Positions 14,326 to 57,250 of a DNA stretch of 64,000 nt are shown one piece after another. Origin of the DNA: an uncultured bacterium (GTDB lineage Bacteria > Krumholzibacteriota > Krumholzibacteriia > WVZY01 > JAKEHA01); contig CAZULB010000001.1 of assembly GCA_964621155.1 (NCBI GenBank), forward strand, positions 10,402-74,401, given 5' to 3'. Both the position numbers and the translations under genes were made by a program. Position 1 is the first letter of the stretch. The number at the start of each line of letters is the position of its first letter. The notes under the pieces were generated by a model. The model was not told the DNA's origin, did no database searches, and saw only the letters and a program-made list of their open reading frames with translations.

Positions 14326-14425
14326 GGATGCGTCCTCCGAAGGACGAGAATGTGGAAAGCACCGGTCGGAACAGAGTGGGGTGTGCTCGCTATATTTTCG
14401 CACTCGGGCAGGCTATGCGCAATGA

Positions 14426-22502: not shown

Positions 22503-23192
22503 TCAATCCTTGAAGCGATATCCCACGCCGCGAATAGTTTCTATCAACTGGCGGTGATCGCCGAGTTTCTTGCGAATGGCACGCACGTGCACATCGATGT
22601 TGCGATCGATCACGATGGCTTCTTCACCGATCACGCGCGTCAACAGCTGGTCGCGCGTAAACACGCGCCCCGGGTGCGAGGCCAGGAAGTGCAGCAGCCG
22701 GAATTCGGTCGCCGTGAGCACGAGGGAGTCGCCGTCCACGCGCACGTCGTGGCGCTGCGGGTCGATGATGACGCCATCGCGCACGATGCGGTCCTTACGT
22801 TCCTTCTCCGGCGCGCTGCGCGAGCGGCGCAGCACCGCCTTTACGCGCGCCACCAGTTCCTTGGGACTGAACGGCTTGACCATGTAGTCGTCCGCGCCCA
22901 TGCCGAGCCCGAGTACGACGTCGGATTCCTCGCCCTTCGCCGTCACCATTATGATAGGAACACCCTGCGTCACCGGGTCGGCCTTGAGCTTGCGGCACAG
23001 GTCGAGCCCGTCGATCTCGGGAAGCATGAGATCGAGGATCACCAGGTTGGGCACGGCGCGTTCGATCTTCGAAAGCCCGTCTTCGCCGCTCGTGCTGGTG
23101 GTGACATCGAAGCCCTCGCGCTTCAAGTTGTACGCGATGACCTCGAGGATGTCCTCCTCGTCCTCGATGACGACAATCTTGTCCGTCTTCAC
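22503..23192 (-). CDS. phoB: OmpR/PhoB-family response regulator
   Basis: Receiver domain (IVVIEDEEDI...LDLMLPEIDG...VTAKGEE) plus winged-helix C-terminus (VIGEEAIVIDRNIDVHV...GVGYRF). Confidence 0.85.
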   Translation of the reverse strand: MKTDKIVVIEDEEDILEVIAYNLKREGFDVTTSTSGEDGLSKIERAVPNLVILDLMLPEIDGLDLCRKLKADPVTQGVPIIMVTAKGEESDVVLGLGMGADDYMVKPFSPKELVARVKAVLRRSRSAPEKERKDRIVRDGVIIDPQRHDVRVDGDSLVLTATEFRLLHFLASHPGRVFTRDQLLTRVIGEEAIVIDRNIDVHVRAIRKKLGDHRQLIETIRGVGYRFKD

Positions 23193-23207: not shown

Positions 23208-24116
23208 CTAGCCAAAGCGGCCCGTGACGTAATCCGAAGTCTCGGTGAGCTTCGGGTTGGTGAAAATCTCCGCGGTGGGTCCGTATTCGATCAGCCGGCC
23301 CAGGTACATGAACGCGGTGAAATCGCTCACGCGCGCGGCCTGCTGCATGTTGTGCGTGACGATCACAATCGAGTACGAACCCTTGAGCTCGTGCATGAGG
23401 TCCTCGATCTTGCCGGTGGCGATGGGATCAAGGGCCGAGCACGGTTCGTCCATCAGCAGCACTTCCGGTTCGCCCGCAATTGCGCGCGCGATGCACAGTC
23501 GCTGCTGCTGCCCGCCGGAAAGGCCCAGGGCACTCTCGTTGAGGCGGTCTTTCACTTCATCCCACAGCGCCGCGCCACGCAGGCTTCTCTCGCATACTTC
23601 ATCCAGGGTAGCGCGCGCGCGCACGCCGTCGACGCGCAGCGAATACACCACGTTCTCGTAGATGCTCATCGGGAATGGATTCGATTTCTGGAACACCATG
23701 CCCATGCGCTTGCGCAGCTCGATCACGTCGACGGCACGACCGTAGATCGAGTCGCCATTGAGCAGAATGTCGCCTTCGATTCGTACGTCGTCGAGCAGGT
23801 CGTTCAGGCGGTTGATCGAGCGCAGGAGCGTCGACTTACCGCAGCCCGACGGGCCGATGATGGCGGTGATGCGTCCCTGCGGCATTCCCATCTCGATGTC
23901 ATGCAGCGCCTGCTTGACGCCGTACCAGAAACGGAAGCGCTGCACGTCGAGCACGTGTTTCTCGCGCGCCAGCGCGTCGTGCACCACCGTGGACACGGAC
24001 TCCCCGCGCGCAATCGCCTCCAACCGGTTCATCGAACCGGAGGGCGGTGTGGTCTCGCCGGATGGGGCGGAAAAAATGGAACGATCGGGCACCGAATTCT
24101 CCCGGTTGGTAGGCAT
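23208..24116 (-). CDS. pstB: Phosphate ABC transporter ATP-binding protein PstB
   Basis: Walker [10 protein letters not shown], signature [14 protein letters not shown], Walker B LLMDEP. Start ATG 24116 overlaps the pstA TAA by 1 nt. The ORF-track upstream extension is read-through. Confidence 0.85.
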
Positions 24117-25780
24117 TAGAAGGTACCACCCACGAACTTTCGCCGCAATCTCGTGCGCACGCGGATGGCGGCCACGTTGAGCAGCGCGATAATGGTTATG
24201 AGGAGCAGCGTGGTGGTGAACACCATCGGCTTGGCGGCCTCGCTGTTCTGGCTCTGGAAACCGACGTCGTAGATGTGGAATCCGAGGTGCATGAAGCTGC
24301 GCTCGGGGTGCACGTAGGGAGCGGTGGCGTCTATGGGCAGCGCCGGGGCGAGCTTCACCGCGCCCACCAGCATCAGGGGCGCCACTTCCCCCGCGCCACG
24401 CGCGATGGCCAGGATGAATCCGGTCATGATACCGGGCATGGCGCGCGGCAGCACGATACGGCGGATCGTCTGCCACTTGCTGGCTCCGCATGCGTACGAA
24501 CCTTCGCGCATCGATCGCGGCACCGCCGCCAGTGCTTCTTCCGTGGCCACTACCACGACGGGAAGGGTGAGCAAGGCGAGCGTGAGCGATGCCCAGATCA
24601 GACCGCCCTTGCCGAAGGTCGGATTGGGGAGGCTCTCCGCAAAGAACGTGCGGTCGATGGATGCTCCCATGATGTAGCAGAAGAACCCCAGGCCGAATAC
24701 GCCGAACACGATGCTCGGCACACCGGCAAGATTGTTGATGGCGATGCGCACGGCACTCACCACGGCGCCGGCCCGGGCATACTCGCGCAGGTACAGCGCC
24801 GCCAGCACACCGAACGGAACCACCGCGATCGACATCAGCAGCGTCATGACGATGGTGCCGACAATGGCGGGAAACACGCCGCCCTCGCTGTTGGCTTCGC
24901 GCGGCTCACCGCACAAGAACTCTTTCCATCGCGAGCCATACACACCGAGACGCGAGCCCGCGTTCAGGCGATTGGCCGGATATGCGCGCACAATGTCCGC
25001 GACTGCGATCGCCGCCGTGTCGCCTTTGGCGGTGGCCAGCATCAACTGGTAGCGCGCGTTCTCCTGGTCCAGCGCGCGCATCTCATCCTCGAGCGCGGAG
25101 CGCCGCGCATCCATCGCGCGCTGCTCTCCCTCATGGATGGCGCTCGCCTTCCTGTATTCGGCGGAATCTTTCCCGCTGGCGCGTTCCACCTTGAGCACGT
25201 GCAGCCGCCCACGCTCCACGGTCGCGTTGAGGGCACCAAATTCATCGCGCTGCAGGTGGTAACGCCGGTTGAAGCGGTCAATCACGCCACCGTGAATCTT
25301 TCCGAACTCGGCCCATGCCGCCTCCGGGCCGGTCGCGACCGGCTTGCCGTCGATTCGAAACTCGGTGGGCACGCCGTAGAAACGGCCCCAGGCCCGACGT
25401 TCCAGCACGAGTCCCCACTCCGGACGCGATTCATTGGTGATGTCGGCGTCGTCCACCCACTCGAAGTGCGTGCCCGTTCGCTCGAAGTTGCCGGTGCGCA
25501 CAAGGCGCCGGTGCGCGTCGCCCTCGGTCTGGTGTCGCGTCACCTCTCCCATGAGCACTGTGCCGTTGTTGAGCTCGACGCGCTCCAGCGGATGCGGCCA
25601 GAACGTGGTGCCTCCCTGCCACAGCACCAGCGCGAGCAGGCCGACCACCATCACCGCACACACGGCAAGCGCACCACCCATGAGCCAGATCATGTTCTCG
25701 CCGTGCGCAAGCAGTGATGTGCTTCCGCTCACGCGCTTGAGAAACCTCGGCGCCCCGGGAGTACGCAGCGGCATGCTCAT
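24116..25780 (-). CDS. pstA: Phosphate ABC transporter permease PstA (long form with ~270-aa N-terminal extension)
   Basis: C-terminal ABC permease core ([20 protein letters not shown]...EAA-like region). Gene sits between pstC and pstB. Confidence 0.8.
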
Positions 25781-28302
25781 ATCTGCGCCGACCTTTTTCG
25801 GAATCGGAGGCGCACAATCTCAGCCACCGTGTTCACCAGAAACGTCATGGCGAAGAGCAGGAGTGCCGCAAAGAACAGGGTGCGATAGTGGGTGCTGTTG
25901 CGGACAGCTTCCGGAAGCTCAACGGCGATATTCGCGGACAGTGTGCGGAAGCCATTGAACACATTCATCTGCATCACGGGCGTGTTGCCGGCCGCCATGA
26001 GCACGATCATGGTTTCACCCACAGCGCGCCCCAGGCCGATCATGATGGCGGAGAAGAGGCCGCTCATCGCCGTCGGTAGCACGATACGCACCGCCGTCTG
26101 CCAGGGTGTGGCGCCGGCGCCGAGAGACGCGGCCCGAAGGTGCGAGGGCACCGCGGAAAGCGCATCCTCGGCGATGGTGTAGATGATGGGAATCACCGCG
26201 AAGCCCATCACGAACCCGACCACCAGCGCGTTACGCTGCACGTAGGTGCCGAAGAATCCGCCGCGCGGGTCCGCGTGGACGAGGGTGAGCAGTCCCGCCA
26301 CCGCCAGGGTCAGGAGCAGCGTGGCAATGGCGGCAACTACAAAACGAATGCAGTCCATGCCCGCCACCCGCGAGCGCGACATCGTCATCGACGCACTGCG
26401 GAAACGCGCCTCGGTGAAGCGGCTCGTGCCGAAAATGACAACGGCGGCACACAACGGGATCAACAGCAACACCCATCCCCCGAAACCGCTGCCGCGCTGG
26501 CCATCGAGCCACGACATGATGTCGCCCGCGAAGAGCGTGCGCTCGGCCCACGGCCCCATCAGGGCGGCAAGACCCAGAGAGAATGGCAGGACCAGCAGAA
26601 TGATGACAAAGCGCAAGCGCGACAGGCGGCGTGTCGTGGACGCGGGCAGAAGCTGCCAGAGATACGCGCCGGCCAGCAGTGTCAGCGGCACGATGAGAAA
26701 TCCAACCATCACCGACGCGACGTGCCCCTGCACAAAGGGCGCGAACACGAGCGCGGCCAGGAATCCAAGCACCACGCTGGGCAGACTGGCCATGGACTCG
26801 ATCAGCGTTTTCAAGCGCGGGCGCAGCGACGGAGAAACAAACTCACTGGTGAAGATCGCGGCCAGCAGAGCCAGCGGCACACCAAAAAGCATGGCGTAGA
26901 AAGTGGCCTTGAGCGTACCGAACACGAGCGGCCACAGGCCGAGCTTGGATTCGAAGTCGTCCGTGCCGGCCGACGACTGCCACACGTGCGTGGGCGTCGC
27001 GTAACCTTCGTACCATACGGGGCTGAAGAGCGAACGCAGCGTGACTTCCGGATGCCCGGGTTCGAGGTCAAAGTGCTGGAGCGATGCGCCCGACGCGACC
27101 AGCAATCCGTCCGTCTTGGGCGCAAACGCGAGCGCGTCGACGCGCGCCTTTGGATCGAGCGTCATGTCGATCACGCGCTTGCCGCTGGTGCCCTGGAACA
27201 TGCGCACACGGCCATCGGCGTAGCCTGCCACGAAGAGTCTTGCGCGCGCTGAAGCCGCAAGCGCCGTCACCGCGGACCCGTCACCGCGGAACACGCGCGG
27301 GCTCACCAGCGTGGGCTTGCCGTTCGACTCCGCCTTGAACCACGCCGTCACGTTTCCCTTGTCGTCGCCGAAGAGCACGGTGGAACGGCCGATGAGCGTG
27401 CTGACCGCCGTGATCCGGGCGTTACCCGCCAGCATTCCGGTGGCGATTGCGGGCAGCGCATCGTTGCGCGCATCGAGCATGGTGGCATCGCCGTCGGCGC
27501 CAACGACGAGAATCGAGCTGCCTTCTTCGGTAACGATGACCCGCGCATCGGCGCCGGTTTCGGGCGTCGCCGTCGCGTGGCGGACGATGGCGGTCGCGGT
27601 TTCTCCGGTAAACTCATTTTCCTCGCGCTTGACGCGATCCAGGATGAGCGAATCCCCGGCGAGGGTCACCACCATGAAACCGTTATCGTCGGCGAGATGA
27701 TCGATGGCGCGCAGAGTGGCCGCGCCCACGGCGGGAATCGTCCCGGTACTGTCGAGCTGGGCGCGCTGGCTGCGCAGGGACCCCTCGCTCGTGCGTTCGA
27801 TCACCGCGTCACCGGCCGTTACACAGTCGCCCGCATGCGCCGGCGGTGTATTGGCGGCCACCTCCGCTTCCGCGGGATAGGAGGTGTCAAAGCCGACTCT
27901 GTAGAGCTGAATGCTGCCGTCAGTGCGGCCGAGTGCGAGTGAGCTGGACCTCACATCGAACGACGCGACTGCCAGCGAATCTGCGGAAACGAGGGTTCGC
28001 GTGAGGAGCACGTCACCATTGTCGAGTCGGAAGGAGCGAAATACGCCGTCCTTCCCCAGCTCCCAACCGCAGACCCGGTATTCATCCACTCCCGTGTACA
28101 ACGGTGACGGCGCAGCAGTGGCGCCGTGACCCGACGGCGCCACATCGCCGGAGCGAAACAGCGGATACACCACGCTGAGCAGAAACAAGAATACGCCGGT
28201 GACAGCGAGAATCGTCCCGATGCCCCCGACGGTAATACACATTGCGGCCAACTTGTCCGCGACGCGAACCGTCCAGCGTGTCTTGTGCGCTCGTTTTCTC
28301 AT
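25777..28302 (-). CDS. pstC: Phosphate ABC transporter permease PstC with ~400-aa N-terminal extracytoplasmic domain
   Basis: C-terminal six-TM permease core (GTLKATFYAMLFGVPLALLAAIFTSEF...). N-terminal TM, then a beta-rich region. Sits immediately after pstS. Confidence 0.75.
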   Translation of the reverse strand: MRKRAHKTRWTVRVADKLAAMCITVGGIGTILAVTGVFLFLLSVVYPLFRSGDVAPSGHGATAAPSPLYTGVDEYRVCGWELGKDGVFRSFRLDNGDVLLTRTLVSADSLAVASFDVRSSSLALGRTDGSIQLYRVGFDTSYPAEAEVAANTPPAHAGDCVTAGDAVIERTSEGSLRSQRAQLDSTGTIPAVGAATLRAIDHLADDNGFMVVTLAGDSLILDRVKREENEFTGETATAIVRHATATPETGADARVIVTEEGSSILVVGADGDATMLDARNDALPAIATGMLAGNARITAVSTLIGRSTVLFGDDKGNVTAWFKAESNGKPTLVSPRVFRGDGSAVTALAASARARLFVAGYADGRVRMFQGTSGKRVIDMTLDPKARVDALAFAPKTDGLLVASGASLQHFDLEPGHPEVTLRSLFSPVWYEGYATPTHVWQSSAGTDDFESKLGLWPLVFGTLKATFYAMLFGVPLALLAAIFTSEFVSPSLRPRLKTLIESMASLPSVVLGFLAALVFAPFVQGHVASVMVGFLIVPLTLLAGAYLWQLLPASTTRRLSRLRFVIILLVLPFSLGLAALMGPWAERTLFAGDIMSWLDGQRGSGFGGWVLLLIPLCAAVVIFGTSRFTEARFRSASMTMSRSRVAGMDCIRFVVAAIATLLLTLAVAGLLTLVHADPRGGFFGTYVQRNALVVGFVMGFAVIPIIYTIAEDALSAVPSHLRAASLGAGATPWQTAVRIVLPTAMSGLFSAIMIGLGRAVGETMIVLMAAGNTPVMQMNVFNGFRTLSANIAVELPEAVRNSTHYRTLFFAALLLFAMTFLVNTVAEIVRLRFRKRSAQI

Positions 28303-28378
28303 CTATATGTGTGCCGAAGCCGGCGAGCGACTTTCGTCGCCCGCCGGCCCGGTTGTAACCTTGCGTGGAAGCAACGCC

Positions 28379-29386
28379 TCAGTTGGCGGCCTTCATGGTC
28401 AGGCCGAGCTTGGCGAGCTCCTCGCTCGCGATCTTGGCGTTGACCGGGAAGTAACCGTCCTTGATCACGTCCGCCTGGCCGTCCCGGCTGAGCACATACA
28501 GCAGGAACTCGCGACGGAGCGGATCGAGCTGCGTACCCGGCTTGAGATTCACGTAGACGTACAAGAAGCGCGAGAGCGGGTACTTGCCCGTGTAGGCGAA
28601 TTCCGGTGTGGCCGAGATGGCCTCATCCGTCGCCGTGGCCTTGAGCGGTACTTCGCGCACATCGGCCGATTTGTAGCCGATGCCGCTGTAGCCAATGGCG
28701 TACTTGTCGCTCGAGACCGCCTGGACGACCGCCGCGCTACCCGGCTGCTCCTTCACTTCATCCTTGTAATCACCCTTGAAGAGCGCGTGCTCTTTGAAAT
28801 ACCCGTAGGTGCCCGAGGCCGAATTGCGGCCGTAGAGGCTGATGGGCTTGTCGGCCCATTCGCCGGTGAGACCAAGGTCGCCCCAGGTGCGAATGTCCGC
28901 GGCTGCGCCACCCTTGCGCGTCTTCGAGAAGATAGCGTCGATCTGCTGCATGGTCAGATTCTTGATCGGGTTGTCCTTGTTGACATAGATCGAAAGCATG
29001 TCGATCGACGTGCGGATCGCCGTCGGCTTGTACCCGTATTTCGCCTCGAACTGGTCGACCTCTTCATCCTTCATCATGCGGCTCATCGGACCAAAGGTCG
29101 CGGTGCCTTCGACGAGCGCCGGGGGAGCCGTCGAAGAACCCTTGCCTTCGATCTCGACCTGGACGTTCGGATACGCCTTGCGGAAATCTTCCGCCCACAG
29201 CGTCATCATGTTGTTCATGGTGTCCGAGCCCACACTCTTGATGTTGCCCGACACGCCCGAGACCGTCTTGTACGGCGCGAGCTTCGAATCCACTTTCACC
29301 GCCGTGTCCGCAACGGCCATGGCCACCATCGCCACCAGCGCGCCGGTGATCACCAGCGACACTTTACCAAAGGTTGAGCGAATCAT
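28379..29386 (-). CDS. pstS: Phosphate ABC transporter substrate-binding protein PstS
   Basis: PstS-family motifs (SGVSGNIKSVGSDTMNNMM...GTATFGPMSRMMKDEE). Start ATG 29386 with a GAGGAGG RBS. Confidence 0.8.
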   Translation of the reverse strand: MIRSTFGKVSLVITGALVAMVAMAVADTAVKVDSKLAPYKTVSGVSGNIKSVGSDTMNNMMTLWAEDFRKAYPNVQVEIEGKGSSTAPPALVEGTATFGPMSRMMKDEEVDQFEAKYGYKPTAIRTSIDMLSIYVNKDNPIKNLTMQQIDAIFSKTRKGGAAADIRTWGDLGLTGEWADKPISLYGRNSASGTYGYFKEHALFKGDYKDEVKEQPGSAAVVQAVSSDKYAIGYSGIGYKSADVREVPLKATATDEAISATPEFAYTGKYPLSRFLYVYVNLKPGTQLDPLRREFLLYVLSRDGQADVIKDGYFPVNAKIASEELAKLGLTMKAAN

Positions 29387-29468
29387 GTCTGCAGGTCCTC
29401 CTCGACAGGGCGCCGCAGGCGGCGCCGAAAATTGTTTGATCCTCAAGTCCGTGAGGAGATTAGCGAGG

Positions 29469-29566
29469 CCGGATAAAGATTGTATTAAGGAAAGCTAAAG
29501 GTTTGCGACCGCGGTGAGGATGCGGTGCAAACTGTTACAAGCTAACTAGTTACCGGATAAAGATTG
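29469..29566. promoter_or_regulatory. pstS upstream region with two copies of CCGGATAAAGATTG (29469..29482 and 29553..29566)
   Basis: Exact 14-bp direct repeat, 84 bp apart, upstream of pstS on the transcribed side. Candidate Pho-regulon operator, by inference only. Confidence 0.3.
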
Positions 29567-30859
29567 GCTGGCGCTGTCCCCGGAACGGGAGGAATCGGCC
29601 GGCTCGGGCGTCGGGGCCGCCCGCATGATCTGGGCACGCTGGATCAGCATCTGCGCCCGCTCGCCGTACTCTTCACTGGCCGCCGCAACGGTGAGATGGG
29701 TCATGGCCAGGTCGGGCTGGTTCAGCTCGAGCGCGCAGTAGCCGAGCATCATGTACGGGCGCGGCTTCTCAGGAGAGAGCTTCACGCACTCAGTGAATGC
29801 TTTGTATGCCTCTTCGAAATGTTTTTCCATGACCTGCAGGTCGCCGAGCAACGACCAGAGCTGAAAGGTCGGAGCCTCGCTGAGATTCTTGTTCAGGACC
29901 ACCAGCGCGCTGTCCGGCTGGAAGGAGGCCATGTAAGCAGACGCGATACGCTCCGCGTCGGTGCCCGAGGACGCGTCGCGCATGGCGACGGTGTAATGCT
30001 CCGCTGCCGCCGCCGGCGCATCGATGGCCGAGTAAAGATCACCCAGCTGCTTGTGCTCGGCTGCCGTGAGCGGACGTAGATACCCCACTACGGTGAGCGC
30101 GACCGCTGCCTGCTGGTAGTTCGACGTGCTGGCGTAGAACTGGAAGGCGAGATAATGGGCATCGGCGCTGCTGGGAAACTTCTCCAGCATGGCGTTGACC
30201 GCGCGCTGCCCACGATCCTTGTCCTCCGCCTGCAGACAACCGCTCACCAGTCCGCGGTACCATTCGAACTTCGGCGCACCGTGCTTGCCGGAAACCAGGT
30301 CTTCCAGCATCGGTAGCGCGCCGTTCGCGTCGCCGGACTGAAGCCGCGCGGCCGCTGCGTAGTAAAGAAGCTCGGGGCGCTTTTCGACGGAGAGATCGTA
30401 GCCCTTCTGCAGCGCTTCCGACGCGCGCTTGAAGTCTCCCAGGCCGTACGCGGTTTCACCCAGCGCGAGCCAGCCTTCGTCGTAGCGCGGCTCGAGCGCC
30501 ACAACTTTTTCGTACTCCTTGAGGGCCAGGTCGCGCTTGTCCACCTGCGCAAGCATGCCCGCGTACTGATAGTGCACGAGGAAGTGTTCGTCCTTCGGGT
30601 GGCCCTTGATGTATTTCGCGAGTGTTTCGACCGCTTTGTCGTTCTCGCCCTTTTCCATGTGCTGCTGTGCTTCGAACAGCGCCATGCGCGCATCGCGCGG
30701 GAGATCTTCCAGCGTCTCGATGGGCTTTTCAGCTTTGGCAGCGACCGCAGGAGCTTTGGCCGCAGCCGCCTTGTCGGCGTCTGCCGCCAGCGCGAGCGGT
30801 GATCGTGTTGCCAACGCGATGAGAAGCCCGAAAAGAATTCTGAGCCTGCGAAAAGTCAT
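29546..30859 (-). CDS. Secreted TPR-repeat protein (TtpD-like component of TonB2-type system)
   Basis: Signal peptide MTFRRLRILFGLLIALATRSPLALA (ATG 30859, 2 nt after the tonB stop). Multiple TPR-like helices. Positional equivalence to ttpD. Confidence 0.6.
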   Translation of the reverse strand: MTFRRLRILFGLLIALATRSPLALAADADKAAAAKAPAVAAKAEKPIETLEDLPRDARMALFEAQQHMEKGENDKAVETLAKYIKGHPKDEHFLVHYQYAGMLAQVDKRDLALKEYEKVVALEPRYDEGWLALGETAYGLGDFKRASEALQKGYDLSVEKRPELLYYAAAARLQSGDANGALPMLEDLVSGKHGAPKFEWYRGLVSGCLQAEDKDRGQRAVNAMLEKFPSSADAHYLAFQFYASTSNYQQAAVALTVVGYLRPLTAAEHKQLGDLYSAIDAPAAAAEHYTVAMRDASSGTDAERIASAYMASFQPDSALVVLNKNLSEAPTFQLWSLLGDLQVMEKHFEEAYKAFTECVKLSPEKPRPYMMLGYCALELNQPDLAMTHLTVAAASEEYGERAQMLIQRAQIMRAAPTPEPADSSRSGDSASQSLSGN

Positions 30860-30861
30860 GG

Positions 30862-31521
30862 CTATGTATTCAGTTTGAAGTGGAGTGCGGTAACCACCCA
30901 CGACGTCACTTTCTTGCCGCCGATGGTGCCGGCCTCGAAGCGCCACTTCGAAACCGCATTGATCACCGAGTCGTCAAAGGTCTCTTTGGGACCGCCCGTC
31001 ACACGCGATTCGACGATCTGCACCTCGCCGACCGAGCCGTCTTCACGAACCAGAATCTTGATCTGCACGGTGCCTTCGACACCCTGTTCGCGCGCCTTGA
31101 ACGGGTACACCGGCGGCATCTTCACGATGGCACGCGGCGCCTGGTCGAGCTCGTACTGATCGAAGACGAGCTTCCGGGTCACGCTGTTGTCGGTAGCGCC
31201 GCCGAGGTTGATCGACACCGCCGCGCCCGCGAGATTGCCCAGCGCCTGCAGCTCCGCGTTCATGTCGATGCTTTCCAGGAGGTCCTTGGTGACATCGGGC
31301 TGGGGTTGCTCCTGCGGCTTCTCCGGCGGTGCGACCTGCTGTTCTTCCTGCGGCTTCTCGTCGGCGAGATCCATCAACGCAACGCCGCTGCCCATCTGGA
31401 TGTCCTGCTTCACGGCCACTTTGTGGTGCGTGAGAAACAATCCGGTACCGAGCAATGCCACGTTGGCGCAGATCGCCACCGCGCCGGCCGGGAAAATCCA
31501 TTTCGGAAAGCGATCGAACAT
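30862..31521 (-). CDS. tonB: Energy transducer TonB
   Basis: N-terminal TM, Pro/Glu-rich spacer (PEKPQEQPQP), C-terminal TonB domain (PVYPFKAREQGVEGTVQIKILVREDGSV). Start at ATG 31521. Confidence 0.75.
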   Translation of the reverse strand: MFDRFPKWIFPAGAVAICANVALLGTGLFLTHHKVAVKQDIQMGSGVALMDLADEKPQEEQQVAPPEKPQEQPQPDVTKDLLESIDMNAELQALGNLAGAAVSINLGGATDNSVTRKLVFDQYELDQAPRAIVKMPPVYPFKAREQGVEGTVQIKILVREDGSVGEVQIVESRVTGGPKETFDDSVINAVSKWRFEAGTIGGKKVTSWVVTALHFKLNT

Positions 31522-31523
31522 TT

Positions 31524-31940
31524 CTACGATTCCCACTCGCGCTTGGCCGCCAGACTCACGTTCTTGGCACCCGCGAGCCGGCACTGGTCCATGACTTTGA
31601 CGATGTCGCCCGTCTTGCTGTCGCGATCCGCCACCACCACCACACCCGCTTCCGGATCACCGGCGAGCTCGCGCTCGACCAGACCGCGCACACGGCGCAC
31701 ATCGACACGCTTGCCCTCCATGTAGATGTCGCCGTTGGAGGAGACGCCGATCATGATGCTGCCGTGATCTTTCACTTCGGCCGTCGACGCCGTGGAGCGC
31801 TGCACGTCGATACCGGTTTCGCGCACGAACGATGTCGAGGCCACGAAGAAGATGAGCAGCACCATCATGACGTCGATCAGCGAGACCACGTTGATCTCGA
31901 CTTTTTCGTCGCCGCGAATTGTTTTGCGGATGTTGATCAT
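31524..31940 (-). CDS. exbD: Biopolymer transport protein ExbD/TolR
   Basis: INVVSLIDVMMVLLIFFV TM followed by a periplasmic domain. 138 aa. Confidence 0.85.
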   Translation of the reverse strand: MINIRKTIRGDEKVEINVVSLIDVMMVLLIFFVASTSFVRETGIDVQRSTASTAEVKDHGSIMIGVSSNGDIYMEGKRVDVRRVRGLVERELAGDPEAGVVVVADRDSKTGDIVKVMDQCRLAGAKNVSLAAKREWES

Positions 31941-31949
31941 ATCGGTTCC

Positions 31950-32543
31950 TCAGCGAACATGGTGCTCGAGCACCAGCATGGTTTGATCAAGATGATGCGA
32001 GAGACGGCTGGCGCGGCGCGACAGCGACGCGCTGAGCAGCAGGCCCGGGATTGCCACCAGCAGGCCCGCTTCGGTTGCCACCAGGGCCTCCGAAATTCCG
32101 CCCGCCAGTGGGCGCGCGTTACCCGTGCCGATGGCCGAGATCACGTTGAATGTCGCGATCATGCCGCTCACGGTGCCGAGCAGACCGAGCAGCGGCGCCA
32201 CCGATCCCAGCGCGGCAATCACCGACAGGTTGCGGTTGAGCTCGGGACGCATCTTGATGGCGCATTCCGAAAGTATGCGCTTGTCGAGCTCGGGCTCGCC
32301 GGTGCGCATCCGCGTGTAACTCTGGATCAAGCGTGCGCGCAGTCCGTGGCCAAAATGGTTCACCGGATTTCCCTGCACGGCGTGCACGGCGTCCTGGATG
32401 CCCAGATCTTTGGATGTGAGCCGGTGGAACGTAATGAGGCGTTCCGCGATCAGTGTCCACATCAGGAATGAGACCGCGGAAAGCGGAATCATCACCCAGC
32501 CGCCGGAGCGAGCGAGATCAAGCAGTGACTGCCAGAGATCCAC
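31950..32543 (-). CDS. exbB: MotA/TolQ/ExbB proton-channel protein ExbB
   Basis: Three TMs; conserved C-terminal GTVSGMIATFNVISAIGTGNARPLAGGISEALVATEAGLLVAIP. Confidence 0.8.
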   Translation of the reverse strand: MDLWQSLLDLARSGGWVMIPLSAVSFLMWTLIAERLITFHRLTSKDLGIQDAVHAVQGNPVNHFGHGLRARLIQSYTRMRTGEPELDKRILSECAIKMRPELNRNLSVIAALGSVAPLLGLLGTVSGMIATFNVISAIGTGNARPLAGGISEALVATEAGLLVAIPGLLLSASLSRRASRLSHHLDQTMLVLEHHVR

Positions 32544-33933
32544 GACGCTGCTCCTTCTGAATGATGTTGGTGAGACCCACGGCCTTCTCCTCCATATCGC
32601 TCACCACCGCGTTGGCGCGGCGCGAGAGGAACACGTGCAGGAGCATGGTGGGTACCGCGATACACAGGCCCCACTTGGTGGCGATCAGCGCTTCCGAAAT
32701 ACCGCCCGACATGAGCTTGGGGTCGCCGGTGCCGTACACGGTGATCACGTTGAAGGTCCGGATCATACCCGTCACCGTGCCCAGCAGACCGAGTAACGGT
32801 GAGATGGCACCCAGGGCCGCCATGATCGAAAGGCCTTTTTCGAGGCGCGGGATCTCGCTCAGGATGGATTCCTGCAGCACGTTCTCGAGCGTTTCGCGGT
32901 CCTCGTTGCGCGCATTGATGCCGTCGCGCAGCACGTTCACCACCGGCCAGTTGTGATTCTTGTGTTCCTGCATGATCGTGTCGACGGCGTCCCAATCGCC
33001 CTTGGCCGCCAGATCATTGACCCGGCCCATGAGCTTGTCGGTGTCACCGTGCACGCGCTTCAGGTACACGACTTTGTAGAGCGTGAAGAGGATCACGGCA
33101 ACGGCCACGATCAGGATGGGCCACATGATGTTGCCACCCAGCTTGAATTCCTCGAGCATGCTCAGGTGGTGCGTCAGCTGCGACAGCGACTCGCCGGCGG
33201 CGATGTCGATGGGAACCACTTCGCCCTTGCCCGCGAAATAGTTGCGCATCGAGCGCGCCATGCTGCCCGAAGGCAGCACGGAGAGCGCGACAAGATTCTT
33301 CGATTCGGTGGTGTAGCTCAGGAAGCCGACTTCCTTGCCGTCGCGGTAAAGTGCGGTAAAACGGCCCAGGAGCAGAATGTCACCGTCGTGATCGTTTCCG
33401 TCACGGCCGACGTACTTGCCCTTCTGCAGTGCCACCTGGGACGAACGCTTCATTTCTTCAAAGAGCACCGCCGTCATGCCGCCGATATCATGGATGTCGG
33501 GGAAATGGCCGGTATCCAGAAGCGGTGAAATCTTTGCAAGCGGCGTCTCGTCGAGCGCCGTGCGCGGCGAGGCCTGCAGCATCGCTTCCACGTCGCGCGC
33601 GGCCATGCGCACGTTGCCGGACAGCTCGTGGAAGTCGGACTCCTTGGTGGACCACTTTTCGTTGAGCGCATCGTGGCGCGCCTGCCTGTCGGCTTTCTGC
33701 TTACGCAGCGCCGCAATGTCGTTCTCGAGACTCTTTTCGCGCGCCTCGAGCTCGTTCACCTGCAGTTCCAGCGCCGCCTTGTCGGCAAAGATCTTCTGTT
33801 CGACTTCCTTCGCTTTCGCTTCCGCCGCCAGCTTGTCGGCTTCAGCCTTCTTGACGGCTTCGCGCACGTCCTGCGCTGCGACAGGCGCGGCCAGCGCACT
33901 CAGACAGAGGATGGCAATCAATAGCTTCTTCAT
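32518..33933 (-). CDS. Large MotA/TolQ/ExbB-family protein with N-terminal signal peptide and coiled-coil periplasmic domain (TtpC-like)
   Basis: Signal peptide MKKLLIAILCLSALAAPVAA. Long coiled-coil (KEVEQKIFADKAALELQVNELEAREKSLENDIAALRK). C-terminal ExbB channel core (GLLGTVTGMIRTFNVITVYGTGDPKLMSGGISEALIATKWGL). Confidence 0.7.
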   Translation of the reverse strand: MKKLLIAILCLSALAAPVAAQDVREAVKKAEADKLAAEAKAKEVEQKIFADKAALELQVNELEAREKSLENDIAALRKQKADRQARHDALNEKWSTKESDFHELSGNVRMAARDVEAMLQASPRTALDETPLAKISPLLDTGHFPDIHDIGGMTAVLFEEMKRSSQVALQKGKYVGRDGNDHDGDILLLGRFTALYRDGKEVGFLSYTTESKNLVALSVLPSGSMARSMRNYFAGKGEVVPIDIAAGESLSQLTHHLSMLEEFKLGGNIMWPILIVAVAVILFTLYKVVYLKRVHGDTDKLMGRVNDLAAKGDWDAVDTIMQEHKNHNWPVVNVLRDGINARNEDRETLENVLQESILSEIPRLEKGLSIMAALGAISPLLGLLGTVTGMIRTFNVITVYGTGDPKLMSGGISEALIATKWGLCIAVPTMLLHVFLSRRANAVVSDMEEKAVGLTNIIQKEQRRGSLAVTA

Positions 33934-34694
33934 GACTGGATCCTTCCGAGCGGGAGCGTGATCACTTTGGTCGAACGCAGGCGCATGACCATTTCACGCG
34001 CATCCGCGATCGAGTTCACGTATTTCTTGTCCATCTCGACCCACTGTCGCGAGGCGCGGTCGAACTCACCTACGCGCTTGCCGTCGGGCGAGCGCCAGTA
34101 GACCGACACGCGGCCAATCCGGATCACATCGGCGGAAATCTCTTCGCTTCCAACCTTGATGCGTTCCTGGGAGACATCGACAGTGTTGCCATAGTTGGCT
34201 TCCACCTGCAGCGCTTCCAATACGCGGCGCAGTTTCTCGGCGCCCGTCACTTCGGGCTTGGCGATGGCTTCTCGCACCGAGGCCAGACGGTCGCTGCGTT
34301 CCTTCACCAGGAAGGGAATGTCCTGCTTGACCCACTCGTCGAGGCGGTTGACCACCACATTGAGCGAATCCTCGAGGTTGTCCTTGAGCCGGGCGGACTC
34401 AACCATGCGGCGCTCGAGCTCGGCGATACCCGCGTCGAGCGAAGCCACTTCCCTCGCTTCGAAGGCTTTGGTTTTCTCGAGATAATCGACTTGCGCCCTG
34501 GCGGCGCGGTAGCGGGCGGCGTAATCGTTCTTCTCTTCCGCCCACGCTTCCTGCTTCTTCTGCGTTTGCTGCTGGGTCTCGACGGTCCTGGCGACCGTCT
34601 CGCTCAGCGACTTGTTTTCCTGGGCGCCCGCGAGCAACGCTGCACCGAGCGAGAAGCCCGTGAGGATGGTCGCGGTGCAAATCAAACGTTTCAT
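33930..34694 (-). CDS. DUF3450-like periplasmic coiled-coil protein (TtpB-like)
   Basis: Signal peptide, then a Gln/Glu-rich coiled-coil. 254 aa. First gene of the TonB2-type cluster; overlaps the next gene by 4 nt. Confidence 0.55.
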   Translation of the reverse strand: MKRLICTATILTGFSLGAALLAGAQENKSLSETVARTVETQQQTQKKQEAWAEEKNDYAARYRAARAQVDYLEKTKAFEAREVASLDAGIAELERRMVESARLKDNLEDSLNVVVNRLDEWVKQDIPFLVKERSDRLASVREAIAKPEVTGAEKLRRVLEALQVEANYGNTVDVSQERIKVGSEEISADVIRIGRVSVYWRSPDGKRVGEFDRASRQWVEMDKKYVNSIADAREMVMRLRSTKVITLPLGRIQS

Positions 34695-34814
34695 TTGTGT
34701 CCTTTCGAGGGGTGCGGATCGAGCGCGACGTAGCAGTACAAACGCGGAGGAGCGCGCAATGACCGAACCCTGGTCGCGAAGCAGGATAGAGATGCTGTGT
34801 AAATCGCGTATGAA

Positions 34815-34835
34815 TCACGGGTGAATCACCCGTGA
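34815..34835. promoter_or_regulatory. 21-bp palindrome TCACGGGTGA-A-TCACCCGTGA in the divergent promoter between the TonB2-type operon and the TonB-dependent receptor
   Basis: Perfect 10-bp inverted arms with a 1-nt spacer. Embedded in iterated GAATCAC/GAATC motifs (34811..34845) with another copy at ~34903. Confidence 0.4.
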
Positions 34836-34991
34836 ATCTGGCTGTCGCGCCAGTGTGCTCCGATCGGTCCGCGCGCGTTTCTATATTTCACTTCGGCTTT
34901 ATTCCAGATTCACACGACTTCCCTAGTATCGCCCCCGTTGATCCGCGCCCGTAGGTGTCGGGAAGCGGACACAGAGACACATTCACAGGAG

Positions 34992-37751
34992 ATGACAATG
35001 ACGGGGACCGCGAAAGGTGTATTCGCTCTCTCCTTCATGCTCGCACTCTGGGCCGCTGGCGCAGCGATGGCGGGAACCATTGAAGGAACCATCAAGGATG
35101 CGAAGACGGGTGATCCGTTGGTCGGAGCCACGGTGCGTATCGTGAACAAGGATTTGGGAGCCGCAAGCAACATCGACGGCAGGTACCTGATCGCCAACGT
35201 GCCGCCGGGCATCTACTCGCTGCGCGTTTCGTACGCGAACTACGCCCAGAAAGTGTTGCCGGGAGTGGCCGTGACTGGAAACGACAGCACCACCATGAAC
35301 ATCACGATGGAGCCTGCTGGCGGCACGGGAGACCTGCAACGCATCGATGACACCTATGTGGTCGAAGATCGTATCCGCAACAACATCGTGGGTGAACTCG
35401 CCGCGCGCCAGAAGTCAGCCATCATCGGCGACGGCATGACCCAGGAACAGATTCGACTTTCTCCCGCAAGCGACGCCGGCGATGCGCTCAAGCGCGTCAC
35501 CGGACTCTCCGTTGTGGACGACAAGTTCGTGTTCGTGCGCGGCGTCACCGACCGTTACAACTCGACGACGCTCAACGGCGCGACCGTCACGGGCACGGAC
35601 ACGGACAGCGACAAGAAGAGCTTCTCGTTCGATCTGATTCCGTCATCGCTGATCGCGAGCACCATCGTCGCCAAAACGGCCACCCCCGACCTGCCTGGTG
35701 ACTTTTCGGGCGGACTCGTGCAGGTCAACACGCTGGACTTTCCATCGCAGTTCATGCTCACCGCCGGCATGGAAGCCGCCAGTGACAACGTGAGCTCGAA
35801 CAAGGATATCCGCAAAGCGCCCGGCGGTGGATCGGACTGGAAGGCCAAGGATGACGGAAGCCGCGCGCTTCCGCCGGGCGAGACCGGCGTCGACCTTGCC
35901 AAAGCGCTTCCCAACACCTGGGCCACATCCGGTGACGAGTCCAACCTGAACAGCAACTACGGCCTCGCGGTCGGGAACAAGTTCAATGTCGGCGGCGGCC
36001 AACTCGGCTTCATTGCGTCGGGCACGTACAAGAACAGCTTCAAGATCGAAGACTACCACCAGGCGCCGACGCCGCCCGGGCAGGGGCCCATTTTCGAATT
36101 CGATGGCAAGCGCTACAAGGAAAAGTACCTGTGGGGCGGGCTCGCGAACGTGAGCTGGCACATAACCGACAATCATCGCATCGCATTCGAGAACAACTAC
36201 ACGCGCACCGCGGACGACAAGGTCACCGAGTCCGAAGGCACGGCGGAAAGCCAGGTACCCACGCGCGCCCAGTCGATCACATGGGCCCAGCGCGATCTCT
36301 ATCTCGGCCAGCTCAAAGGCCAGCACACGCTGCCTTTTGCGCACGGCCTCGACATCAAGTGGCGCCTTACGACGTCGGCGTCATCGGCGCAGGAGCCGGA
36401 CCGCAAGTTTGCGGCCTACGGAAAGACCGCGCGCGGTGTGTACTTGCTCGGCGAAAACTATCGCACGTGGTCCGAACTGAGTGAAGACACACACGGCGGA
36501 GCGCTGGACGTCCAATATCCGGTCGGAGACGGCTTCGTCAAGGCGGGCTACGCGCAAAATCACCGCGCTCGTGACTACCACATCGATGCTTTCGCGGCGA
36601 GTACTCAGGGCATGGACAGAAAGTATCAAAACACGCTGCCGATCCTGCCCATTGACGAGATATTTGCGCCGGAAAACTTCGGCAAGGACACTGACGGCAA
36701 GCAGATGTTCGACTTCATCCCGTACACCGTTCTGTCCGGCACCTACGACGGTGAACAGGATCTCAGCGCTTACTACGGCATGTACGATTCGCCCTTTAAA
36801 CTGCGCGGACGCGGTTTTCGTTTCGCGGGTGGCCTGCGCGTCGAGGACTCGGACCAGACGGTGAACGGCCCGAAAGCAGCCGACGATCCGACCCTCATCT
36901 CATCGCGCAGCCAGACCACCGACGCGCTCCCATCCGCAAATCTGACCTGTGAAGTGACCAGGACGTCCAACATCCGGCTCGGATATTACAAATCGGTCAA
37001 TCGACCGGAGATTCGCGAGCAGGCCAACGTTGCCTACCTGGACTTCGACCGCAACCAGACCGTGGTGGGAAATTCAGATCTCGAGCGCGCCACCATTCAG
37101 AATTATGACGTGCGCGCCGAGTGGTTTCCGAAACCCGGTGAAGTAATCGCGGTGAGCTACTTCTACAAGGATCTGACCGACGCCATCGAAGAACAGCTGC
37201 TGCCGTCGCCGGACCGCTACATCCGCACCTGGTTCAATTCACCAAGCGGGAAGAACTTTGGCTACGAGATTGAGATGCGCAAGGGGCTTGGCTTCCTGAC
37301 CCGAGGGCTGGAGAACCTGGTGGTGCAGGCCAATTACACACACGTCGATTCGGAAGTCGAATACACCGAATCTTATAACGATTCGTTGACCAACACGCCG
37401 GTCTACATATCCAGGACACGACCGCTGCAGGGCCAGGCCCCGTACACGGTCAACGCCGGCCTGACCTATTCGATTCCGGAAATCGGACTCTCGACGAGTC
37501 TCCTGTACAACCGCTTCGGCCGCCGCCTCGATGCGGTGGGCGATTCGCGCGATGAGGATACCTACGAAGAGCCGCGCAACCTGCTCGACTTTGCGCTCAC
37601 CGAGCAGTTCACGAGTTGGATTCGTCTGAAGTTCACGATGAAGGATCTGCTGGCGGACGACAAAGTGCTGACGTACGGCAACAGCGGATCCACGTGGGAG
37701 CGCGTTAACGTGGGGACGACGTACGCACTTTCTCTCTCTTTCAGTCTCTAA
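34992..37751 (+). CDS. TonB-dependent receptor with N-terminal carboxypeptidase-regulatory-like domain
   Basis: AGGAG RBS. Signal peptide. CarbopepD_reg-like (GTIEGTIKDAKTGDPLVGATVRIVN...DGRYLIANVPPGIYSLRVS). Plug (DALKRVTGLSVVDDKFVFVRGVTDRYNSTTLNG). Long barrel. Confidence 0.8.
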   Translation: MTMTGTAKGVFALSFMLALWAAGAAMAGTIEGTIKDAKTGDPLVGATVRIVNKDLGAASNIDGRYLIANVPPGIYSLRVSYANYAQKVLPGVAVTGNDSTTMNITMEPAGGTGDLQRIDDTYVVEDRIRNNIVGELAARQKSAIIGDGMTQEQIRLSPASDAGDALKRVTGLSVVDDKFVFVRGVTDRYNSTTLNGATVTGTDTDSDKKSFSFDLIPSSLIASTIVAKTATPDLPGDFSGGLVQVNTLDFPSQFMLTAGMEAASDNVSSNKDIRKAPGGGSDWKAKDDGSRALPPGETGVDLAKALPNTWATSGDESNLNSNYGLAVGNKFNVGGGQLGFIASGTYKNSFKIEDYHQAPTPPGQGPIFEFDGKRYKEKYLWGGLANVSWHITDNHRIAFENNYTRTADDKVTESEGTAESQVPTRAQSITWAQRDLYLGQLKGQHTLPFAHGLDIKWRLTTSASSAQEPDRKFAAYGKTARGVYLLGENYRTWSELSEDTHGGALDVQYPVGDGFVKAGYAQNHRARDYHIDAFAASTQGMDRKYQNTLPILPIDEIFAPENFGKDTDGKQMFDFIPYTVLSGTYDGEQDLSAYYGMYDSPFKLRGRGFRFAGGLRVEDSDQTVNGPKAADDPTLISSRSQTTDALPSANLTCEVTRTSNIRLGYYKSVNRPEIREQANVAYLDFDRNQTVVGNSDLERATIQNYDVRAEWFPKPGEVIAVSYFYKDLTDAIEEQLLPSPDRYIRTWFNSPSGKNFGYEIEMRKGLGFLTRGLENLVVQANYTHVDSEVEYTESYNDSLTNTPVYISRTRPLQGQAPYTVNAGLTYSIPEIGLSTSLLYNRFGRRLDAVGDSRDEDTYEEPRNLLDFALTEQFTSWIRLKFTMKDLLADDKVLTYGNSGSTWERVNVGTTYALSLSFSL

Positions 37752-37875: not shown

Positions 37876-38023
37876 CGGACCCTGAAAGGAGGAGCCCGGC
37901 AAAGCGGATTCGCACGAAAACCCCTCTCTTATTGGGTGAGAGGAAAGAATAAGGGATTGCAAGAGGTTGAAACAACCAGCAACGAAAGCAACAGCTACCA
38001 ACGTCTTTCTGGAGGAACTAAAC

Positions 38024-45155: not shown

Positions 45156-46178
45156 CTAGAATTTGCCCTGGAACGTCAGGCGGGCCATGACATCCGTATC
45201 CGGCTTGGGCGGGCCGGCCACTTCGGGATCGTCATACACCGTGATTTCGACGTTGGGCATGATGTTGACGCCTTCCGCCACCGCGAAATCCATGCCACCG
45301 ATGAACAACGTGTTGGCGGAGATGGACGAGAACGGAAGGTACGCGATCGATTCGCCCTGCGGATTGGGATCCATGTTGCGATCGACGCGACCGAAAAGCC
45401 ACATCTTGTCTTTTACCGCACCGGTGATGAAGCCGGAGAGAATGCGATAATCCTGATCCTCGCCAACTTCGTTGCGCGACTGCTGTGCGAACTGCAAGCC
45501 CGCGCGCATCTTCTCCGCCGTGTAACCGGCGAAACCGTAGTACGTGACCCGGTCCGCGGCGTTGACGCGGTCATCGTAGTCGGCGTAGCCCTCGAGAACC
45601 AGATGGGCGGTGGGACGAAACTGAATCGCGCCCATCGCCTTCTTGCGCGTGTTGGTCTCGGATCCGACAGATGCGCCGTTGCCAACCAGGATGTGATAGC
45701 CAACCTTCTTCGATTCGCCGAAGCCGCCCTGGAAGCCGATGCCGGCGTCGCGCGACGCGCCCCACAGCTGGAGCTCGACCGGAACCTTCTCGATCGTCCG
45801 GTATCCCCACACGTCCTCGTAAGTCTGGAGGGTGGGCGTGGGCTGAATACCGATGAGCGCTGAGTGCGTATTGTGCTGCCACTTGAGCCAGGCGTCCTTC
45901 ATGAAGGCCGGAATCGTGGCGACCGTCTTGAAGTCGCCGGGCTGCGAGGCCTCGAGGCGAAGGCGAGCGGACCAGACGTCGTCGAACTTCTGGTCGTAGG
46001 TCAGATAGAAACGGCGGATCCAGAGACCGTTCATGTCCTCGATCGTCGAATCATGATTGGCCGCCATCCAGTAAGCGTCGCCGAAGACCAGCGCGCTGAA
46101 CTTCCCTTCACCGGCAAAAGCCGGAACCGCGGTTGCCGCCAGCGTGAGCACGGCGAGAACAGCACTTTTGAAAGACAT
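45156..46178 (-). CDS. Outer-membrane beta-barrel porin-like protein (possibly phosphate-selective porin O/P-like)
   Basis: AAGGAG RBS. Signal peptide MSFKSAVLAVLTLAATAVPAFA. Alternating amphipathic strands. C-terminal F. Confidence 0.5.
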   Translation of the reverse strand: MSFKSAVLAVLTLAATAVPAFAGEGKFSALVFGDAYWMAANHDSTIEDMNGLWIRRFYLTYDQKFDDVWSARLRLEASQPGDFKTVATIPAFMKDAWLKWQHNTHSALIGIQPTPTLQTYEDVWGYRTIEKVPVELQLWGASRDAGIGFQGGFGESKKVGYHILVGNGASVGSETNTRKKAMGAIQFRPTAHLVLEGYADYDDRVNAADRVTYYGFAGYTAEKMRAGLQFAQQSRNEVGEDQDYRILSGFITGAVKDKMWLFGRVDRNMDPNPQGESIAYLPFSSISANTLFIGGMDFAVAEGVNIMPNVEITVYDDPEVAGPPKPDTDVMARLTFQGKF

Positions 46179-46370
46179 TGAGGCACTCCTTGGTTTGAAC
46201 CGAACCATCTTGTCAAATGACTTGCGGCGAAGAATGCAGGGTAAGTGTGAAGACCGGATGAAGGAAAAATGAATCCTTCACACAGCGACGACCGATCTTT
46301 ACTGCCTTGTCGGGGTCTTAATATGGCGGCGGAGACGGGGCAGGAGTGTAAGTGCCTTATGAAGCCGAGC

Positions 46371-57239: not shown

Positions 57240-57250
57240 TTCACTACTCC

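Follow-up and report, generated by a model that had tools for sequence, protein, structure and literature searches.

What controls the divergent promoter from which an uncultured member of the Krumholzibacteriota transcribes a TonB2-type operon in one direction and a TonB-dependent receptor gene in the other? In the 64-kb stretch of its DNA analysed here (the window), the operon lies on the minus strand and the receptor gene on the plus strand, as a first-pass annotation of the sequence had correctly described, and the region between them holds a 21-bp perfect 10-1-10 palindrome, TCACGGGTGA-A-TCACCCGTGA, at 34815-34835, in a run of GAATC(AC) motifs. That annotation had proposed that the palindrome may be the operator of a dimeric repressor, responsive to iron or to a substrate, acting on both transcripts. 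We find that the run consists of direct repeats, that the repeats are conserved in related genomes whereas the symmetry is not, and that the same repeats precede pstS and a porin-like gene. Judged by their sequence and surroundings, the repeat arrays are very probably Pho boxes, at which phosphorylated PhoB would activate promoters under phosphate limitation.

The iterated GAATC(AC) motifs proved real: a repeat finder located four plus-strand direct repeats (GTAAATC at 34799, ATGAATC at 34810, GTGAATC at 34821 and GTGAATC at 34832), recurring exactly every 11 bp. On the minus strand, in the direction of the operon, they form units (GATTCAC 34838-34832, GATTCAC 34827-34821, GATTCAT 34816-34810 and GATTTAC 34805-34799) with a 7-bp core, (G/C)(A/C)TT(C/T)A(C/T) (GATTCAC), set head-to-tail every 11 bp with 4-bp spacers of free sequence. 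The operon side thus reads GATTCAC-GGGT-GATTCAC-CCGT-GATTCAT-ACGC-GATTTAC, then ACAGCATCTC, then TATCCT, and its four units are equivalent to two tandem Pho boxes of the Escherichia coli type. The receptor side, on the plus strand, reads ATTTCAC-TTCG-GCTTTAT-TCCA-GATTCAC, then ACGACTTCCC, then TAGTAT. An inverted copy of the motif had also been noticed about 70 bp from the palindrome; this copy, CCAGATTCAC at 34904-34913, is indeed there, is 100% complementary to 34832-34841, and is the last unit of the second, three-unit array (34885, 34896, 34907). Both arrays have the same orientation relative to their own gene, and each ends exactly 10 nt before a TAnnnT hexamer. The elements of the divergent promoter are as follows.

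34783..34788, minus strand: ttpB-operon promoter, predicted -10 hexamer TATCCT, exactly 10 nt past the last unit
34799..34838, minus strand: operon-side putative Pho-box array of four units (repeat finder, ortholog alignment A1, L011)
34815..34835, no strand: the palindrome, covering unit 2 of the operon-side array completely, with the end of unit 1 and the start of unit 3 on either side
34839..34884, no strand: variable spacer between the divergent arrays, unconserved, with a 21-bp indel in L007 (alignment A1)
34885..34913, plus strand: receptor-side putative Pho-box array of three units, ATTTCAC 34885, GCTTTAT 34896 and GATTCAC 34907
34924..34929, plus strand: TonB-dependent receptor promoter, predicted -10 hexamer TAGTAT, 10 nt past the last unit

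We then asked which property of the site is conserved. Orthologs were collected with the DUF3450 protein encoded by the first gene of the operon (ttpB) as the query in one genome scan and one metagenome scan, which returned seven close relatives with 78-92% protein identity, one of them a Candidatus Krumholzibacteriia metagenome-assembled genome, as well as distant loci (L002-L004; 41-44% identity); a fragmentary match (L010; 28 residues, 64%) was not used. Compared with the ttpB protein of the window, those of L005, L007 and L008 show 82-92% identity. In alignment A1, identity per column is 94% in the units and 92% in the -10 hexamer, and 73% in both the 4-bp spacers and the 10-nt gap. The -10 hexamer of the orthologs reads TATTCT or TAATCT at the ttpB-operon promoter and TAGGAT, TAGTAT or TACTAT at the receptor promoter; the receptor-side array and its -10 hexamer are kept in L005, L007 and L011, and the array is partly kept in L008.

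By contrast, the dyad is perfect in the window genome alone. Its arms are complementary at ten of ten positions there, at eight in L001, at five in each of L005, L007 and L011, and at four in L008, while the 7-bp units retain their 94% identity, which argues against a dimer-type operator. Where the window reads ATGAATCACGGGTGAATCACCCGTGAATCT (34810-34840), the L005 counterpart of the palindrome is TCACCGGCGATTCACTCGCCA; substitutions in the orthologs preserve the direct repeats and disregard the dyad. Dyad symmetry is therefore not the conserved property in these five orthologous promoters, which come from Candidatus Krumholzibacteriia and soil metagenomes. No second copy of the palindrome turned up in the window when as many as three mismatches were tolerated, and shuffles that preserve dinucleotides predict 0.00 such sites. 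A site both unique and unconserved, the outcome that the first-pass annotation had itself set against its proposal, is thus what we find for the palindrome, but not for the repeats. Relative to the predicted -10 hexamer (34783-34788), the dyad is 27-52 bp farther upstream, which puts it at about -38 to -58, clear of both that hexamer and the predicted start site.

The perfection of the palindrome can be traced to the repeats. The unit core GAtTC is self-complementary, and with an 11-bp period 4 of the 10 arm pairs come free. In four further pairs a base of a unit faces one of a spacer, where the spacers tend to end in G and then T or C, complementary to the ...AC of the unit; in the last two, spacer faces spacer (GG with CC). 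In the window genome the spacers GGGT and CCGT are complementary and all six contingent pairs match, which they do not in the relatives. Given the symmetry of the unit and the preference for G/T at spacer ends, we estimate this coincidence to be of the order of 1%, and we regard the perfect palindrome as a by-product of the repeats and not as a separate element.

If the repeats are a regulon motif, they should recur elsewhere. A weight matrix derived from the units found two further arrays in the window, with the same anatomy as the first two.

29457..29462, minus strand: pstS promoter, predicted -10 hexamer TAATCT, 10 nt past the last unit
29473..29501, minus strand: third array, upstream of pstS, CCTTTAG-CTTT-CCTTAAT-ACAA-TCTTTAT
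46231..46236, minus strand: porin promoter, predicted -10 hexamer CATTCT, 10 nt past the last unit
46247..46275, minus strand: fourth array, upstream of the porin-like gene, GATTCAT-TTTT-CCTTCAT-CCGG-TCTTCAC

The pstS array is kept in L014 and L015 with differing spacers. The porin array is kept in L011, L012, L014, L020 and L021, down to 52% protein identity; in L020 and L021 (57% and 52% identity, respectively) it reads AGTTTAC/GATTTAC-N4-CCTTCAT-N4-CCTTTAC/CCTTCAT-N10-TACCGT/TAACGT. We condensed the first two arrays into a composite pattern that contains the invariant unit bases and the A and T of the -10 hexamer only, TTNA-N7-TTNA-N7-TTNA-N12-ANNNT. On both strands of the 64-kb window it has exactly four matches (0.00 expected), all intergenic and each pointing at its own gene, namely pstS, ttpB, the TonB-dependent receptor gene and the porin gene; with one mismatch permitted, the sole addition is the four-unit array matched again in an overlapping register. 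Shuffling the three intergenic regions that hold the arrays (52-56% G+C) produced 0, 0 and 2 matches in 20,000 trials. In 21 related loci (about 191 kb), 19 of 19 matches fall at orthologous promoters of the same four classes, to which the motif is thus exclusively tied. The arrays at pstS and the porin gene mark the repeats as a regulon motif.

The genes behind these promoters point to the regulator. On the minus strand, ttpB-ttpC-exbB-exbD-tonB-ttpD-pstSCAB-phoB-phoR-phoU form one string, and the receptor and porin-like genes lie outside it.

29546..34694, minus strand: TonB2-type six-gene block, with an architecture matching that in PMC6957404
33930-34694, minus strand: ttpB-like gene, DUF3450
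32518-33933, minus strand: ttpC-like gene, long MotA/ExbB protein
31950-32543, minus strand: exbB, ExbB
31524-31940, minus strand: exbD, ExbD
30862 to ~31509, minus strand: tonB, TonB
29546 to ~30859, minus strand: ttpD-like gene, TPR protein
23208..29386, minus strand: pstSCAB block
28379-29386, minus strand: pstS, PstS
25777-28302, minus strand: pstC, long PstC of 841 amino acids
24116-25780, minus strand: pstA, long PstA of 554 amino acids
23208-24116, minus strand: pstB, PstB
22503-23192, minus strand: phoB-like gene, OmpR/PhoB-family response regulator, Response_reg and Trans_reg_C (receiver and winged helix)
20678-22501, minus strand: phoR-like sensor histidine kinase gene, HAMP-PAS-HisKA-HATPase
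20028-20681, minus strand: phoU, PhoU (TIGR02135, 203 bits against a cutoff of 130), start set by analogy with L015
34998..39748, plus strand: pair of receptor and beta-helix protein genes downstream of the receptor-side array, syntenic in L011
34998-37751, plus strand: TonB-dependent receptor gene
37967-39748, plus strand: 593-residue beta-helix protein with a C-terminal sorting tail of the T9SS
45156..46178, minus strand: porin-like outer-membrane protein of 340 amino acids with a signal peptide

PhoU, PstB, PstA and the PstS family pass their NCBIfam cutoffs. We propose, from sequence and gene context, that the response regulator encoded at 22503-23192 is the binder of the repeats. Its closest solved structure is the phosphate-responsive RegX3, and its 90% cluster is named PhoB by the JGI. 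The porin-like protein belongs to a 76-member family in which the Pfam domains Porin_O_P or Porin_4 occur in a few members; the window protein itself had no match in Pfam, NCBIfam or PDB sequences.

PHO boxes are composed of 11-nt direct-repeat units with seven conserved and four less conserved bases, are bound by PhoB head-to-tail and follow a species-specific consensus (PMC4415409). The arrays described here resemble Pho boxes in several respects: there are at least two tandem head-to-tail units with an 11-nt period at each side of the divergent promoter (four and three units); the last unit lies exactly 10 nt before a predicted and conserved TAnnnT/CAnnnT hexamer in all four promoters; the motif, with only its four matches in 64 kb, stands upstream of phosphate-acquisition genes including pstS; and a PhoB/PhoR pair, PhoU and PstSCAB are encoded in the same string. 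No sigma-70 -35/-10 pair was found in the three intergenic regions that hold the arrays, as expected if the box substitutes for the -35 element. It is because the motif precedes pstS and the porin gene, and because the cluster encodes PhoB, PhoR and PhoU, that we take phosphate as the most likely signal, in place of iron. The arrays occupy the position of the -35 element in promoters with no recognisable -35, which fits activation rather than the repression suggested previously. What survives of the earlier proposal is that the region very probably binds a regulator controlling both divergent transcripts; a dyad-symmetric site for a dimeric repressor is not supported.

The unit itself agrees in part with known consensus sequences, matching the cross-species NTKTMAY (PMC8601176) mostly at six of seven positions and the Streptomyces GTTCAC (unit positions 2-7) at three to five of six, with the TTCAC core in common. 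Such partial agreement is consistent with a species-specific Pho consensus (PMC4415409). As in the E. coli Pho box, CTGTCAT-A(AT)A(TA)-CTGT(CA)A(CT), a 7-bp element and a 4-bp spacer make an 11-bp head-to-tail period (PMC3465305; PMC4415409), tandem multiplication is possible and the box lies near the -10 hexamer in place of the -35; the E. coli position and substitution are described in PMC4971064, citing Makino 1986 and Blanco 2002. Also shared with E. coli are the location upstream of pstS and of an outer-membrane porin gene and the partners PhoB/PhoR/PhoU and PstSCAB. Unlike in E. coli, the window core is GATTCAC and not CTGTCAT, the spacers are G+C-rich and not A/T-rich, and a TonB-dependent receptor and an entire TonB2-type energiser operon are among the predicted targets.

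In Streptomyces coelicolor, the PHO box G(G/T)TCAYYYR(G/C)G occurs in two to eight units, odd numbers being allowed, with cooperative extension (PMC2275107). Its PhoP sites (core GTTCACC) resemble the window arrays in their 11-nt direct-repeat units, high-G+C genome and TTCAC core, and S. coelicolor operators of two, three, four or more units, the weaker of which are filled cooperatively (PMC2275107), are matched by the three to four units here. However, position 2 is A or C in the window, whereas an A at this position impedes binding in Streptomyces (PMC2275107), so that register and specificity are not identical; the phylum and the regulator lineage differ as well.

For the targets, the closest parallel is the TonB2 operon of Vibrio, ttpB-ttpC-exbB-exbD-tonB-ttpD, which has a Fur box upstream of ttpB (PMC6957404). 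The six-gene order is alike, with the DUF3450 gene first and the TPR gene last, and in both cases a regulator site stands just upstream of ttpB. By contrast, the window block has no Fur box, is preceded by Pho-box-type repeats, with phosphate and not iron as the predicted signal, and continues co-oriented into pstSCAB-phoBR-phoU. Pho control has been described for TonB receptors in Caulobacter crescentus (PMC11208175), for exbB2D2-tonB4 of Pseudomonas aeruginosa (PMC4971064) and for ExbB and a PstS-like protein (BF4130/BF4134) of Bacteroides fragilis (PMC3547664), and TonB-dependent uptake under predicted PhoB control in phosphate starvation would place the window beside them. In P. aeruginosa (PphdA-exbB2D2-tonB4), however, a -35 is present downstream of the pho box, which depends on the extracytoplasmic function sigma factor VreI, whereas the window box replaces the -35; and the window, unlike P. 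aeruginosa, has its energiser genes in one co-oriented cluster with pst and phoBR.

We propose the following model. Under phosphate limitation, the PhoR-like kinase would phosphorylate the PhoB-like winged-helix response regulator, which would then bind the units as head-to-tail dimers: two PhoB dimers could occupy the four operon-side units, and binding to the three receptor-side units would be cooperative. Bound PhoB would recruit RNA polymerase to the -35-less promoters and turn on both divergent transcripts at once, one being ttpB-ttpC-exbB-exbD-tonB-ttpD, probably reading through into pstSCAB-phoBR-phoU, and the other the TonB-dependent receptor operon. With this divergent layout, the TonB2-type energiser would be induced together with its receptor. 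At the pstS array we propose an internal promoter of the long gene string, which would boost pstSCAB-phoBR-phoU. With phoB itself among the controlled genes, this would be an autoregulated circuit.

Several observations weigh against this interpretation. The best NCBIfam match of the regulator, PhoB TIGR02154, scores 257.9 bits, below the equivalog cutoff of 296.2, and its orthology to PhoB consequently rests on context. The unit matches the E. coli CTGTCAT at only two to five of seven positions, with only T4-C5-A6 common to the GATTCAC core. The -10 hexamers and start sites, like PhoB binding and the dependence on phosphate, are predictions. The composite pattern was written after the ttpB and receptor arrays had been seen, so that the pstS, porin and ortholog matches alone are independent tests. 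It does not occur at the distant DUF3450 loci (L002-L004, 41-44% identity), which makes the motif model lineage-limited. Finally, the perfection of the dyad is a small coincidence that a Pho box does not require.

The best surviving alternative, which we nonetheless consider unlikely, is that another direct-repeat regulator, for example a member of the OmpR family encoded elsewhere, reads the arrays in response to a signal other than phosphate, such as iron, envelope stress or the substrate of the receptor. An 11-bp tandem layout is generic to the OmpR/PhoB family (PhoP of Mycobacterium tuberculosis has 7-bp repeats and 4-bp spacers; PMC4832192), TonB2 operons are iron-regulated in Vibrio (PMC6957404), and the sub-cutoff score of the local regulator leaves room for a different one. 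The recurrence of the motif argues otherwise, as it is also found ahead of pstS, the archetype of Pho regulon genes, and of a porin gene related to OprO/P; moreover, the only regulator of the cluster sits between pstB and the genes for the PhoR-like kinase and PhoU, and no further regulator gene is adjacent.

Still less probable is a two-input promoter, confined to the window genome, in which the Pho-box array is kept and a second, symmetric regulator has recruited the palindrome. This would account for the complementary spacers (GGGT/CCGT) that the perfect dyad needs and the Pho box does not, and an unusually conserved leader just past the promoter hints at further control; yet no candidate for the second regulator was identified, a site in a single genome carries no evidence of conservation, and four of the ten arm pairs already come free from the self-complementary GAtTC core. 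The weakest explanation, the symmetric dimeric repressor (Fur-like or other) that would hold both transcripts off in response to iron or a substrate, can draw on the perfection and uniqueness of the dyad in the window, on the eight arm pairs kept in L001 and on the Fur boxes of Vibrio TonB2 operons (PMC6957404), but is highly improbable given the loss of the dyad (four to five pairs) in L005, L007, L008 and L011 through substitutions that keep the repeats and not the symmetry, its location away from the -10 hexamer and start site, and the lack of any such dyad in the receptor-side, pstS and porin arrays.

Other candidates were rejected as well. A Fur box was dismissed: the best match to the 19-bp consensus GATAATGATAATCATTATC in 34695-34997 is 11/19, a score reached by 33% of shuffles and thus at chance level, and the annotation had been right that the motif is not a classical Fur box. 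A known structured RNA or a terminator was excluded, as Rfam gave no match with E below 6 in 34600-35100 and no intrinsic terminator-like site was found in the intergenic region. A mobile or repeated element was excluded by the uniqueness of the palindrome and the synteny of the locus in orthologs.

With the arrays read as Pho boxes, the locus suggests a larger picture, for which we see about even chances: a phosphate-starvation regulon in Krumholzibacteriota that is built around TonB-powered uptake across the outer membrane. Through one divergent promoter, PhoB would then switch on a complete TonB2-type energiser, in one string with pstSCAB-phoBR-phoU, together with a dedicated receptor and its T9SS-anchored beta-helix partner and an OprO/P-like porin, and the core Pho response would include actively importing a phosphorus compound whose size or scarcity puts it beyond a porin (for example polyphosphate, phytate or a phosphoester). 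The phosphate/PhoB interpretation takes the place of one based on iron and Fur. It provides a usable model of PhoB sites, units of the above consensus with an 11-bp period that end 10 bp before the -10 hexamer, with which Pho regulons could be predicted from metagenome-assembled genomes in a candidate phylum with no cultured members. The TonB2-type system, the TonB-dependent receptor, the T9SS beta-helix protein and an unannotated porin family become probable phosphorus-acquisition genes, a point that bears on phosphorus cycling in soils and sediments. The principle of regulation is itself textbook. In their repeat anatomy, position and gene context the arrays match Pho boxes as far as in silico tests reach, and TonB-dependent uptake under PhoB control already has precedents in C. 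crescentus, P. aeruginosa and B. fragilis; what is new is a Pho consensus for an uncultured phylum, the joining of a TonB2-type block to pst-phoBR-phoU, and the predicted regulon members. In the titles and abstracts of the matches listed for Krumholzibacteriota and phosphate, Pho regulation is not a topic.

Several further features were noted around the four promoters. The first ~85 nt of the ttpB-operon leader (34695-34782, minus strand) are almost invariant in the orthologs despite diverged promoter spacers. This leader and the porin leader (46190-46215, minus strand) share a hairpin-like GA(C/T)C-N7-8-GGTC containing GG(T/C)TCGGTC, which persists in porin orthologs of 52-57% identity (L020 5960-5980; L021 5950-5972) and might act as a stem-loop that stabilises the 5′ end or as a second site of regulation. 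RNAalifold predicts a hairpin in the ttpB leader, with zero covarying pairs and a single-sequence folding z-score of -0.08; the hairpin-like motif of the two leaders has no Rfam match, and the leader 9-mer alone is not enriched in the window. A conserved upstream open reading frame in the ttpB leader was rejected by eye, since indels in alignment A2 break the frame.

Directly upstream of the pstS array, CGGTCGCAAA (29502-29511, minus strand) is invariant in all pstS-promoter orthologs (A4) without conforming to the unit pattern; an UP-like element and one more site are both possible readings. At the porin promoter, the array is directly adjoined at its first unit by an extra unit in opposite orientation (46276-46283; CTTCACAC on the plus strand, GTGTGAAG on the minus strand). 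Together the two make a small dyad, TGAAGGATTCA, kept in all porin-promoter orthologs (A3); no divergent gene lies upstream. A DUF885 gene comes next after the porin-like gene in the window, L014, L020 and L021.

Among the neighbouring genes, the TonB2-type block directly precedes pstSCAB-phoB-phoR-phoU in the same orientation, the only sizeable gap being the 160-bp pstS promoter region, and the order of TonB2-type block followed by pst-pho is also found in L015 and L017. The long PstC has weak WD40/beta-propeller-like Pfam matches at about residues 250-410, ahead of the permease domain, and the lengths of both PstC and PstA are conserved in L015-L019. The 593-residue protein, which may be a surface partner of the receptor, is syntenic in relatives (L011 15342-17134; L020 12377-13023) that show a Beta_helix_4 match; searches of Pfam, NCBIfam and PDB sequences with the window protein gave only the T9SS tail.

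Other motif-like matches in the window had different origins and were discarded. The match at 957-985 is part of a cobalamin riboswitch (907-1105, plus strand; RF00174, 94.5 bits, E = 3e-22) upstream of a 672-residue open reading frame (1205-3223). Those at 52324, 53008 and 53692 are coding repeats within a 1265-residue protein with a T9SS tail (50392-54189, minus strand), whose tandem coding repeats recur about every 684 bp. The window is also unusually rich in proteins with FlgD_ig/Por_Secre_tail (T9SS-type) C-termini (11959-14403, 37967-39748, 41475-43088, 50392-54189 and 54576-57674), which fits an organism of the FCB group such as Krumholzibacteriota.

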